Shown here in pieces: positions 23,181-26,406 of a stretch of DNA of 28,063 nt. Made by a program: the position numbers and the translations under genes. This DNA comes from a virus (lineage: Duplodnaviria > Heunggongvirae > Uroviricota > Caudoviricetes): positions 1 to 28,063 of the IMG/VR virus record IMGVR_UViG_651053023_000002, one strand, 5' to 3'. Each line of letters begins with the position of its first letter. The first letter of the stretch is position 1. The notes below the pieces were generated by a model that searched no databases, was not told the origin of the DNA, and was given only the letters and a program-made list of their open reading frames with translations.

Positions 23181-23381
23181 CGACAGGTTACGGGGCGGCG
23201 ACCTCGCGGGTTTTCGCTATTTATGAAAATTTTCCGGTTTAAGGCGTTTCCGTTCTTCTTCGTCATAACTTAATGTTTTTATTTAAAATACCCTCTGAAA
23301 AGAAAGGAAACGACAGGTGCTGAAAGCGAGCTTTTTGGCCTCTGTCGTTTCCTTTCTCTGTTTTTGTCCGTGGAATGAACA
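23181..23381. other. Lambda-type cos site (cosN with 12-nt cohesive-end sequence GGGCGGCGACCT at 23193-23204, and cosB towards nohD)
   Basis: CGACAGGTTACG|GGGCGGCGACCT|CGCGGGTTTTCGCTATTTATGAAAATTTTCCGG... matches the lambda genome ends as recalled, directly upstream of Nu1. Confidence 0.85.
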
Positions 23382-24242
23382 ATGGAAGTCAACAAAAAGC
23401 AGCTGGCTGACATTTTCGGTGCGAGTATCCGTACCATTCAGAACTGGCAGGAACAGGGAATGCCCGTTCTGCGAGGCGGTGGCAAGGGCAATGAGGTGCT
23501 TTATGACTCTGCCGCCGTCATAAAATGGTATGCCGAAAGGGATGCTGAAATTGAGAACGAAAAGCTGCGCCGGGAGGTTGAAGAACTGCGGCAAGCCAGC
23601 GAGGCAGATCTCCAGCCAGGAACTATTGAGTACGAACGCCATCGACTTACGCGTGCGCAGGCCGACGCACAGGAGCTGAAGAATGCCAGAGACTCCGCTG
23701 AAGTGGTGGAAACCGCATTCTGTACTTTCGTGTTGTCGCGGATCGCAGGTGAAATTGCCAGTATTCTCGACGGGATCCCCCTGTCGGTGCAGCGGCGTTT
23801 TCCGGAACTGGAAAACCGACATGTTGATTTCCTGAAACGGGATATCATCAAAGCCATGAACAAAGCAGCCGCGCTGGATGAACTGATGCCTGATGGCGCT
23901 GTGATTCATATTGTTCCCAGAGTCGCCGGGGCCAAGTCTGGTGGTGTATTCCAGATTGTCCTGGGAGCAGCCGCCATTGCCGGATCATTCTTTACCGCCG
24001 GAGCCACCCTTGCAGCATGGGGGGCAGCCATTGGGGCCGGTGGTATGACCGGCATCCTGTTTTCTCTCGGTGCCAGTATGGTGCTCGGTGGTGTGGCGCA
24101 GATGCTGGCACCGAAAGCCAGAACTCCCCGTACACAGACAACGGATAACGGCAAACAGAACACCTATTTCTCCTCACTGGATAACATGGTTGGATGGATT
24201 AAAAAGCGTGCTGCTGAACAGTACGCCAGTGCTGGACAGTGA
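23382..24242 (+). pseudogene. nohD: Terminase small subunit Nu1 (N-terminal ~165 aa) fused by deletion to the tail assembly protein I C-terminal region
   Basis: MEVNKKQLADIFGASIRTIQNWQEQGMPVLRGGGKGNEVLYDSAAVIKWYAERDAEIENEK... is Nu1. From about residue 166 (DGAVIHIVPRVAGAKSGGVFQIVLGAAAIAGSFFTAGATLAAWGAAIGAGG...) the sequence matches lambda gpI as recalled. Confidence 0.8.
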
Positions 24243-26406
24243 GGGGAATACCAACATCTCCGGCGTCACGGTGGTGTTCCGGGCCGGTGAGCAGGAGCAG
24301 ACACCGCCGGAGGGATTTGAATCCTCCGGCTCCGAGACGGTGCTGGGTACGGAAGTGAAATACGACACGCCGATCACCCGGACCATCACGTCGGCAAACA
24401 TTGACCGACTGCGTTTTACCTTCGGCGTGCAGGCACTGGTGGAAACCACCTCAAAGGGGGACAGGAATCCGTCGGAAGTCCGCCTGCTGGTTCAGATACA
24501 GCGTAATGGTGGCTGGGTGACGGAAAAAGACATCACCATTAAGGGCAAAACCACCTCGCAGTATCTGGCCTCGGTGGTGGTGGGTAACCTGCCGCCGCGC
24601 CCGTTCAATATCCGGATGCGCAGGATGACGCCGGACAGCACCACAGACCAGCTGCAGAACAAAACGCTCTGGTCGTCATACACCGAAATTATCGATGTGA
24701 AACAGTGCTACCCGAACACGGCACTGGTCGGCGTGCAGGTGGACTCGGAGCAGTTCGGCAGCCAGCAGGTGAGCCGTAATTATCATCTGCGCGGGCGCAT
24801 TCTGCAGGTGCCGTCGAACTATAACCCGCAGACGCGGCAATACAGCGGTATCTGGGATGGAACGTTTAAGCCAGCATACAGCAACAACATGGCCTGGTGT
24901 CTGTGGGATATGCTGACCCACCCGCGCTACGGCATGGGGAAACGTCTTGGTGCGGCGGATGTGGACAAATGGGCGCTGTATGTCATCGGCCAGTATTGCG
25001 ACCAGTCGGTGCCGGACGGTTTTGGCGGCACGGAGTCGCGCATCACCTGTAACGCTTACCTGACCACACAGCGTAAGGCGTGGGATGTTCTCAGTGATTT
25101 CTGCTCGGCGATGCGCTGTATGCCGGTATGGAACGGGCAGACGCTGACGTTCGTGCAGGACCGACCGTCGGATAAGGTGTGGACCTATAACCGCAGTAAT
25201 GTGGTGATGCCGGATGATGGCGCGCCGTTCCGCTACAGTTTCAGCGCCCTGAAGGACCGCCATAATGCCGTTGAGGTGAACTGGATTGACCCGAATAACG
25301 GCTGGGAGACGGCGACAGAGCTTGTGGAGGACACGCAGGCCATTCTCCGTTACGGTCGTAACGTCACGAAGATGGATGCCTTTGGCTGTACCAGCCGGGG
25401 GCAGGCACACCGCGCCGGGCTGTGGCTGATTAAAACGGAGCTGCTGGAAACGCAGACCGTGGACTTCAGCGTGGGTGCTGAAGGGCTTCGCCATGTACCG
25501 GGCGATGTCATTGAAATCTGCGATGATGACTATGCCGGTATCAGCACCGGCGGGCGCGTGCTGGCGGTGAACAGCCAGAGCCGGACGCTGACGCTCGACC
25601 GTGAAATCACGCTGCCATCCTCCGGTACCACGCTGATAAGCCTGGTTGACGGAAGTGGCAATCCGGTCAGCGTGGAGGTCCAGTCCGTCACCGACGGCGT
25701 GAAGGTAAAAGTGAGCCGTGTTCCTGACGGCGTTGCCGGATACAGCGTATGGGGGCTGAAGTTGCCGACGTTGCGCCAGCGCCTGTTCCGCTGTGTGAGT
25801 ATCCGTGAGAACGATGACGGCACGTATGCCATCACTGCCGTGCAGCATGTACCGGAAAAAGAAGCCATCGTGGATAACGGGGCGCACTTTGACGGCGACC
25901 AGAGCGGCACGGTGAATGGTGTCACGCCGCCAGCGGTGCAGCACCTGACTGCCGAAGTCACCGCAGACAGCGGGGAGTATCAGGTACTGGCCCGCTGGGA
26001 CACGCCGAAGGTGGTGAAGGGCGTGAGCTTTATGCTTCGCCTGACCGTGGCAGCGGATGACGGCAGTGAGCGGCTGGTCAGCACGGCCCGGACGACGGAA
26101 ACCACATACCGCTTCACGCAACTGGCGCTGGGACGGTACACGCTGACAGTCCGGGCGGTAAATGCGTGGGGACAGCAGGGCGATCCGGCGTCGGTATCGT
26201 TCCGGATTGCCGCACCGGTAGCACCGTCGCGGATTGAGCTGACGCCGGGCTATTTTCAGATAACTGCCACGCCGCATCTTGCGGTTTATGACCCGACAGT
26301 ACAGTTTGAGTTCTGGTTCTCGGAAAAACGGATTGCTGGTATCAGGCAGGTTGAAACCACAGCGCGCTATCTTGGCACGGCGCTGTACTGGATAAGTGGT
26401 GTGTAA
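24193..26406 (+). pseudogene. J: Tail tip / host-specificity protein J, internal fragment (about J residues 40-780), no native start, truncated C-terminus
   Basis: [63 protein letters not shown]... through ...[10 protein letters not shown] matches lambda J as recalled. Ends in non-J codons SGV-stop at 26406. Confidence 0.85.

Follow-up and report, generated by a model that had tools for sequence, protein, structure and literature searches.

The window, the whole stretch of 28,063 nt analysed here (viral record IMGVR_UViG_651053023_000002), corresponds over its entire length, judged by sequence, to a DLP12-type cryptic lambdoid prophage of E. coli, an element that is already known and has long been studied. 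Position 1 is the intD stop codon, which in K-12 adjoins the tRNA gene argU, and the gene order matches that of DLP12 (intD ... rusA-quuD-nmpC-essD-rrrD-rzpD-bor-ybcV-ybcW-ylcI-cos-nohD ... tfaX-appY-ompT), in agreement with the annotation of the nearest genome. The order from intD to ylcI and from the start of ybcY to appY is shared with K-12 at 99–100% identity, the individual blocks matching the K-12 locus (L003) at 99.1–100%, whereas the window carries more early genes than K-12 (exo, a cI-like repressor, O and P, retained together with intD) and other IS insertions. When the window was compared with the lambda genome (NC_001416) by blastn, four colinear pieces were obtained, of which the first, at 20656–23192, corresponds to lambda 45967–48502 with 98.0% identity and the second, at 23193–23890, to lambda 1–699 with 99.0% identity; the latter comprises cos and codons 1–168 of Nu1, in line with the roughly 165 lambda-like codons proposed in the initial annotation.

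The cos region lies on the plus strand. The heptamer GGGTCCT at 23163–23169, which we take from the lambda literature to be cosQ, is an exact match to lambda 48473–48479 at lambda spacing, the nearest differences from lambda falling just outside it at lambda 48471, 48472 and 48486. The cohesive end of cosN, GGGCGGCGACCT, is located at 23193–23204 with 20-nt flanks that are also identical to lambda; with up to one mismatch allowed, the window has no other cosN-like 12-mer. It is followed by cosB (23245–23361), in which the four motifs R3 (23245–23260), I1, the IHF core (23266–23278), R2 (23299–23312, inverted) and R1 (23346–23361) are all lambda-identical. The arrangement is that of a lambda-type cos, namely cosN with symmetric flanks, cosQ upstream, and cosB followed by the gene for the small terminase subunit (TerS), and cos is intact in sequence and of lambda specificity. 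Although cosQ, cosN, R3, I1, R2 and R1 are the same in sequence and order as in phage lambda, the window differs from the phage in lacking gene A, proheads and a second cos, in the replacement of the final 13 Nu1 residues, and in an R2–R1 gap that is 1 nt shorter owing to the absence of a G (lambda nt 138). This one-base loss may affect the assembly of terminase, although it is shared by the DLP12 cos of K-12. The first base of R3 is changed from C to T in K-12, whereas R3 of the window is that of lambda.

The Nu1 remnant (nohD) occupies 23382–23888 on the plus strand, is 99% identical to lambda 191–697, lacks the last 13 codons and retains a complete Pfam Phage_Nu1 domain (1–164/164, E=3e-100). 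At the first joint (23887–23890), Nu1 at about lambda 696 passes directly into gene I at lambda 15018, with a 14.3-kb deletion and 1 nt of microhomology, and base-level alignment places the breakpoint at 23888/23889. The fragment of the tail assembly protein I (23889–24192, plus strand) covers residues 82–183 of 223 in frame with the Nu1 remnant and belongs to the third blastn piece (23887–24192, lambda 15017–15322, 97.4%). At the second joint (24191–24192), I at lambda 15322 is connected to J at lambda 15620 by a 297-bp deletion with TG microhomology and a frame shift, and the fourth piece (24191–26394, lambda 15620–17823, 94.9%) is the fragment of the tail tip protein J, encoded on the plus strand, which comprises residues 39–773 of 1132, has no start codon of its own, and contains the Pfam domains FNIII-A_GpJ, Phage-tail_3 and Ig_J and an Ig_J_second domain cut at 60/105. 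Because J lies one frame off relative to I, the chimeric open reading frame that begins with Nu1 (23382–24242, plus strand, 286 aa) stops 50 nt into J and consists of Nu1(1–168), I(82–183) and 16 out-of-frame residues from J. At the third joint (26390–26394, breakpoint 26394/26395 by base-level alignment), J at lambda 17823 meets a position about 43 nt inside the 5′ end of ybcY, with 2 nt of perfect (4/5 imperfect) microhomology. These positions agree closely with the junctions that had been predicted from the letters at about 23876, at about 24190 (J residue 40) and at about 26395 (J residue 780), and the predicted frame change that deprives J of a native start was confirmed by a frame check. 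In the lambda alignment, the I- and J-like segments are homologous to lambda I and J, and they do not adjoin an undeleted terminase.

The DNA that follows J had been described as AT-rich and unrelated. It is AT-rich, but it is the usual right end of DLP12: positions 26390–28063 match K-12 at 99.1% identity (NC_000913, about 582,760–584,430; L003, 19761–21431) and contain the 5′ remnant of ybcY, a pseudogene in K-12 DLP12 (26395–26436, minus strand, by K-12 alignment), a tfaX-type tail-fibre-assembly remnant (26507–26692, plus strand), which has a Pfam Caudo_TAP match, occupies the position of tfaX in K-12 and is 83% identical to lambda 22381–22534, and appY (27314–28063, plus strand), the right flank gene of the DLP12 region according to its K-12 position and annotation. 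The locus therefore represents a lineage-specific state of decay of a known cryptic prophage. The functional lambda morphogenetic module is absent, since lambda 700–15016, 15323–15619 and everything from 17824 onward are gone, that is, 14.3 kb, 0.3 kb and several kb (J residues 774–1132 and the interval from J to ybcY). The total loss is roughly 18–20 kb if the ancestor possessed a lambda-like side-tail-fibre region, so that an earlier figure of about 17 kb was of the right order of magnitude. The remaining Nu1–I fusion and the start-less J fragment cannot contribute to particle formation, and the three pieces are already marked as pseudogenes in the RefSeq/PGAP annotation; in P13-6, the closest complete genome, PGAP calls a partial nohD, a partial 'hypothetical protein' and a partial J.

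The locus is most probably, with a likelihood of roughly 85%, the late (packaging) end of a prophage of the DLP12 family that has undergone a rare, lineage-specific decay through three illegitimate deletions. One of these would have taken out 14.3 kb, beginning with gene A and including the first third of I, another the I/J boundary (297 bp), and the third the last part of J and everything beyond it up to and including most of ybcY, each being sealed separately via 1–2 nt of microhomology. Consistent with this model, the base-level alignments show all three joints to be direct (lambda–lambda or lambda–DLP12), with microhomology of 1–2 nt and without IS scars. The joints are real rather than products of misassembly, because six independent complete genomes, the same ones for every joint, contain each joint-spanning 56-mer at 100% identity. 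These six, all pig-derived and four of them named as ETEC, are the only carriers of the three-joint allele among the 5,426 complete E. coli genomes surveyed, and the 56-mer searches of the same set revealed no genome with only one or two of the joints. Different deletion alleles occupy the same locus in other strains (lambda nt 1018→22119 in K-12, 697→14893 in AJ1, 695→13502 in LWY6 and 700→16141 in GF4), which points to independent decay from a fuller ancestor. K-12 retains the whole of Nu1 and 308 nt of A, with lambda 1018 joined to tfa (22119), whereas the window breaks at lambda 696 and has the I and J fragments that are absent from K-12. AJ1 was rejected as a direct parent, its Nu1-to-I joint being different.

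It is less likely, but deserves consideration, that the block from cosB through Nu1 and I to J was already deleted when homologous recombination brought it in from a different lambda-like prophage that was itself defective, or from a phage genome. The density of differences from K-12 rises abruptly at 23245, from 3 in the preceding 4.9 kb to 15 in the 644 nt to the right, and the rightward segment is nearer to lambda than to K-12 DLP12; the cosB–Nu1 block may therefore have been swapped in from another lambda-like element, and some of the joints would then not necessarily have formed at this site. Exchange between DLP12 and lambda-like DNA near cos is indeed frequent: the cos/nu1 region of K-12 DLP12 recombines with lambda at about 100 times the frequency seen for Qin or Rac, half of the junctions adjoin cos, and DLP12 nu1 is functional in lambda (PMC3945230). 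However, none of the three joints occurs at any other locus or in any other genome among the 5,426, and the right-hand crossover would need to have fallen within the short ybcY/tfaX flank. We accordingly regard wholesale import as unlikely and decay by deletion in the DLP12 lineage as the better account.

The initial annotation further supposed that the retained cos makes the locus packageable in trans by a helper lambdoid phage. This proposal is supported only in its first half, the start of packaging, which a helper terminase could bring about and for which cosN and cosB suffice. Termination requires a downstream cosQ and cosN (PMC4669245), and a second cosN (up to one mismatch) was found neither in the window nor, in P13-6, in the 55 kb that follow cos, so that packaging cannot end normally. 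A superinfecting or co-resident terminase of lambda specificity would be expected to bind cosB and nick the chromosomal cosN, which would result in a chromosomal double-strand break and a recombination-prone region where incoming lambda-like phages could exchange DNA with the prophage, while rightward packaging would start into the host DNA of appY-ompT-cus-ent; normal cos-to-cos particles would not be expected. Indirect support for cleavage comes from K-12, where the homologous region of DLP12 around cos is recombination-hot while lambda grows. The literature searched offered no usable account of how DNA is packaged from a single cos in the chromosome, and this view draws on general lambda biology. 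That the locus is instead a helper-dependent unit, transducible in the manner of a satellite or cosmid, is very doubtful, even though cos is intact with lambda specificity and the presence of intD, the cI-like repressor, O and P is compatible with excision and replication. Like the window, E. coli PICIs and cosmids have a lambda-type cos without morphogenetic genes, but PICIs excise, replicate, fit the capsid and redirect the helper terminase (PMC6739421; PMC9026076), none of which is evident for this locus; no PICI-type redirecting functions were seen in the region, the single chromosomal cos of which has no terminating partner. No capsid-sized cos-to-cos unit is present in the window plus the 55 kb downstream in P13-6. 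Even were the prophage to excise and concatemerise, successive cos sites (window plus right end) would lie about 28–31 kb apart. The packaging range of lambda is roughly 37–51 kb, so that a monomer would be too short and a dimer too long.

The first joint falls in a recurrent site of one-sided deletion. At lambda nt 695–700, directly 5′ of the ribosome-binding site of gene A (GATGAACTGA^TACCG^GGG), at least 17 alleles that arose independently break Nu1 and join it to right-hand partners that differ from allele to allele, as found with an anchor that is blind to left breakpoints upstream of lambda nt 674. Across complete E. coli genomes, breaks at this site affect about 5% of the lambda-type copies of Nu1. 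The stretch at the hotspot reads GAACTGATACCGGGG. The deletions extend rightward, the shortest over 1.5 kb and the longest over more than 21 kb, to partners with microhomology of the TA/TACC type; every allele has lost the start of gene A (the whole gene in 12, most of it in two, and with an unlocated partner in three), and cos and the DNA-binding part of TerS are retained in all. Qin of K-12 (nohA-stfQ), which lies at another chromosomal site, likewise has a lambda-type cos and a truncated TerS joined directly to tail or tail-fibre DNA; it breaks at lambda 719, and among its variants 17MR471 breaks at 697 within the hotspot and 160-11H1 at 583. Breakpoints outside the hotspot are found at lambda 583, 719, 880 and 1018. 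Two apparent alleles (L011 and L050) were dropped, as their 22-mer matches had arisen by chance in unrelated genes of metabolism. No IS is present at the joint in any of the 17 alleles; an IS1 of Ec-RL2-1X sits upstream of cos, away from the joint.

There is about an even chance that lambda 695–700 is a previously undescribed, sequence-specific one-sided deletion hotspot of lambda-type prophages; no description of it was found in the literature searched. On this reading, the pattern would imply that DNA is nicked or broken, or replication stalls, at a specific site while the side nearer cos is protected, in contrast to random decay of the prophage. Several candidate causes were rejected. A hairpin or cruciform is not indicated by folding of lambda 660–800 and 690–760 on both strands (z-scores −0.9 to +0.6). 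Chi-directed cutting by RecBCD does not fit, as the window contains no Chi octamer and the nearby GCTGGATG is two mismatches from Chi. An inverted cryptic cos, envisaged from an R3-like CGTTTC 40–50 nt from the hotspot, gave 31/90 matches in register, a value equalled by 3% of random registers. Serine invertases, integrases, restriction sites (CCNGG) and the gyrase consensus were judged by eye not to fit, the breakpoints varying by 1–5 nt and the partners being without the motifs in question. A positional or selective cause acting on any boundary between TerS and the large subunit gene (TerL) was also rejected, since the phage-21-type boundary showed 0 breaks in 54 contigs (P about 0.03–0.04), a comparison that weakly favours a hotspot tied to the lambda sequence itself. 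It is also very doubtful that Nu1(1–168) fusions are domesticated dominant-negative TerS proteins, which would bind cosB and oligomerise without the gpA-recruiting tail and so block the packaging of lambda-like phages, with truncation at the same codon reflecting selection: the chimeric frame is intact, with its native start and a complete Nu1 domain, and truncation at codons 168–170 recurs in the 17 or more alleles, but selection against the gpA-binding tail would allow many endpoints instead of a 6-nt window, the C-terminal tails gained, some in frame and some not, are anything between 3 and 208 residues long, the shared microhomology indicates a mutational cause, and the alleles broken at the four other positions show no apparent penalty.

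As another decay state of DLP12, the locus itself adds little. The persistence of a cos of lambda specificity in the chromosome nevertheless provides a potential target for any lambda-type terminase, and its cutting would break the chromosome, open a route by which recombination makes phages mosaic and allow appY-ompT-cus-ent to be packaged from one side. Of greater interest, prophage decay at the Nu1/A gene boundary is non-random; if a defined lesion causes it, the site would offer an experimentally tractable mechanism by which bacteria or phages disarm the terminase while cos is kept.

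From end to end, the window represents a cryptic prophage of the DLP12 type. It starts at the stop codon of intD, and its blocks matched to the K-12 DLP12 locus (ybcK, ybcL-ybcN, ninE, rusA, quuD, nmpC, essD, rrrD, rzpD, bor, ybcV, ybcW, ylcI and nohD) are each 99.7-100% identical to it. Decay is less advanced than in the K-12 copy: lambda-like exo, part of gam, a kil-like gene and ren (within 1682-9318), a cI-like S24 repressor (5699-6388, minus strand), O (7329-8348) and P (8345-9046) are kept in the window but lost from K-12 DLP12. IS2 (10569-11901) is inserted in ybcK, and a 1,310-bp IS3-family element (17002-18311) lies in nmpC about 22 nt from the position of IS5 in K-12 nmpC, whereas the porin gene is intact in P13-6, the closest complete Escherichia coli genome. 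A further IS3-family transposase gene occupies 1981-2871 (region about 1260-3249). The Chi octamer (GCTGGTGG) is absent from both strands over the 28 kb, as it is from lambda but not from typical E. coli DNA.

Comparison with lambda (NC_001416) by blastn yields four abutting colinear pieces: Rz, bor and the right end (window 20656-23192, lambda 45967-48502, 98.0% identity), the left end (23193-23890, lambda 1-699, 99.0%), part of I (23887-24192, lambda 15017-15322, 97.4%) and part of J (24191-26394, lambda 15620-17823, 94.9%). The ORF listing and direct reading also place the start of the lambda-like left end at 23193. From 26390 to the end of the window, K-12 DLP12 matches at 99.1%, in an alignment that begins in the pseudogene ybcY, about 43 nt from its 5′ end, and continues through tfaX to appY. 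Base-level three-way alignments place joint 1 between GGATGAACTGAT and GCCTGATGG (Nu1 nt ~696 fused to I nt 15018 through a single nucleotide of microhomology), joint 2 at AACATGGT(TG)GATGGATT (I 15322 to J 15620, 2 nt), which is a 297-bp deletion that alters the reading frame, and joint 3 at CTGGA(TA)AGTGGTG (J 17823 to ybcY, 2 nt, perfect). The resulting chimeric ORF carries Nu1 codons 1-168 in frame with I residues 82-183 and ends, after 16 out-of-frame J codons, at a stop at 24242; the J segment after it, residues 39-773, has no start codon. By Pfam, the Nu1 domain is complete, and the J fragment contains FNIII-A, Phage-tail_3 and Ig_J, with Ig_J_second cut at position 60 of 105. The Nu1'::I'::J' arrangement described in the initial annotation is thus borne out, because its coordinates deviate from the true joints by only 1-12 nt.

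Among public genomes, the closest to the window are six complete pig E. coli chromosomes with 99.6% identity to window 23000-27300, namely P13-6 (O141:H4), HNSQ2209 and four strains named as ETEC (ETEC4090, 1716, 4073 and 1706), in which PGAP annotates nohD, a "hypothetical protein", a host-specificity protein J and a tail-fibre-assembly gene, all four as partial. The three-joint allele is real, rare and clonal, because a scan of 5,426 genomes returns each joint-spanning 56-mer, at 100% identity, from these six alone; intermediates with fewer joints were not found in this set. The locus is ordinary: it represents a rare decay state of a known prophage, DLP12, in which a lambda cos survives with its sequence intact, and it is not novel as a kind, because annotated public genomes already contain it.

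The GGGTCCT heptamer at 23163-23169, which we take to be lambda cosQ, the cosN cohesive-end 12-mer with its flanks (23193-23204), R3 (23245-23260), the I1 IHF core (23266-23278), the inverted R2 (23299-23312) and R1 (23346-23361) are all identical to lambda. The sole cosB change is the loss of one G between R2 and R1 (window 23329/23330, lambda nt 138), which K-12 DLP12 also lacks, and the three substitutions left of cosN all lie outside cosQ. The first base of R3 is changed from C to T in K-12 DLP12, whereas the window (23245) has the lambda base. Initiation of packaging requires only cosN and cosB, termination requires a downstream cosQ and cosN, and terminase remains on the cosB side (Feiss et al., PMC4669245). 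The window contains one cosN, and in P13-6 the 55 kb that follow cos, a stretch of ordinary chromosome (ompT, envY, nfrAB, cus, pheP, ent/fep), yielded no second cosN with at most one mismatch. Because termination needs such a downstream site, a helper terminase of lambda specificity should be able to cut and begin rightward packaging without completing it; the earlier proposal that the locus is packageable in trans holds for initiation and fails for completion. Packaging that starts at a lone cos yields particles that are unstable and limited by headful size, not normal transducing phage, and cutting of a chromosomal cos by terminase is harmful to recombination-deficient cells.

Recombination is a better-documented consequence of the cos region than packaging. 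The homologous region of K-12 DLP12 swaps with lambda at about 100 times the frequency seen for Qin or Rac, homologous exchange around the DLP12 cos is frequent, half of the DLP12-lambda exchange junctions adjoin cos, and DLP12 nu1 works in lambda (PMC3945230). The I' and J' segments add 2.5 kb of homology with lambda in the window, and a double crossover could hand a 14.6-kb deletion to the phage, which would gain no new receptor-binding end because the window J ends at residue 773. Compared with K-12 DLP12, the window has 3 differences in 4.9 kb (18334-23244) and 15 in the following 644 nt (23245-23888). Because this jump begins exactly at R3 and the segment is nearer lambda than K-12 DLP12, a recombination boundary may lie at cosB, the cosB-Nu1' block having been swapped by homologous recombination.

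Deletions at the DLP12 locus differ between strains. In K-12 the joint runs from lambda 1018, within A, to 22119 in tfa; AJ1 joins 697 to about 14893-14894 and retains a full-length but frameshifted J and tail-fibre genes, with a hypothetical ORF where ybcY would lie; LWY6 joins 695 to 13502 and retains L, K, I, J and lom; and in GF4, E. coli C and others the joint links about 700 with 16141. Subject to the possible exchange of the cosB-Nu1' block, this variety is most simply explained by a fuller lambda-like ancestor that underwent independent illegitimate deletions. Among Qin-type loci, L010 and L070/L267/L270 have a common right breakpoint in J (lambda 17608) and different left joints (583 to 15670 versus 697 to 17304), which suggests successive deletions within one lineage.

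The Nu1-side breakpoints cluster (LWY6 695, window 696, AJ1 and 17MR471 697, GF4 at most 700); the right partner is 15018 in the window and 15685 in 17MR471, whose allele sits in Qin, a prophage other than DLP12. For unbiased sampling, public collections were scanned for the exact 22-mer ending at lambda 695. Nine of 120 metagenome contigs (8 different sequences) leave lambda 0-8 nt past this anchor, two chance matches in unrelated genes having been set aside, and the other losses of Nu1/A colinearity are scattered (719, 913, 938, 956, 1018, 1184, 1565, 1647, 1877, 2026, 2179 and 2633). In IMG/VR, 7 of 120 contigs (6 sequences, 4 new) break at the hotspot. All sources together give at least 17 distinct, independent alleles: those of the window (23885-23891, lambda nt 693-700) and loci L005-L007 and L009, and 12 from metagenomes or IMG/VR (e.g., L027, L029, L046, L055, L067, L070, L080, L130, L216, L233, L253 and L275). 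The clustering relative to the scattered breaks has P ~2e-20 (Poisson test). About 300 lambda-type Nu1 copies (5%) in complete E. coli genomes are broken here, because the 5,426 genomes contain 5,936 copies of lambda 650-697 and 5,632 intact 674-729 boundaries. This recurrent, one-sided hotspot at the end of Nu1 is itself very likely real. Two IMG/VR contigs (L234 and L254) lose colinearity at nt 880, inside gene A, and differ from each other beyond that point, which may mark a minor recurrent breakpoint in addition to the main one. The genome contig scan also returned exact lambda Nu1/A on short contigs of unrelated genera such as Marinifilum, Kitasatospora, Bradyrhizobium and Paenibacillus (L131, L134, L136-L140, L142-L143, L145-L148 and others), almost certainly lambda control-DNA contamination of assemblies.

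In 12 of the 17 alleles the right partner was located on lambda, in every case in the middle of a gene (nt 2244 to 21847). Two further alleles join lom-like and tail-fibre-like DNA, likewise mid-gene, another leads into non-phage DNA next to a GGDEF gene, and no placement was obtained for the partners of the remaining two. At the joint, almost every partner has TA, TACC or ATACCG in common with the Nu1 site, and in several the shared bases cover more of GATACCGGGG. All events are rightward deletions, with no inversion among the 17 alleles, and none of 39 genome matches to the right-hand anchor lacked the left side. The site is directly 5′ of the GGGG preceding the gene A start codon, whose phage 21 counterpart is an annotated ribosome-binding site; the phage-21-type boundary, of other sequence, shows no break in 54 contigs.

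Selection alone cannot account for precision to within 6 nt, given that alleles broken at 583, 719, 880 and 1018 persist too. A stable hairpin and an inverted cryptic cos were tested and found no support, nor did a Chi site, the window having no Chi octamer. The fixed left end (±3 nt), variable right end and 2-6 nt of microhomology, with no IS at the joints, fit a site-specific lesion near nt 697-703, either a nick, a break or a stalled fork, with microhomology-mediated joining or template switching after it and the cos-proximal side protected. No description of the hotspot was found in the literature searched; it may have gone unnoticed because the two copies of K-12 itself, in DLP12 and Qin, break elsewhere, at 1018 and 719. 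What interest the locus retains comes from this hotspot of recurrent deletion at Nu1/A, which joint 1 exemplifies.
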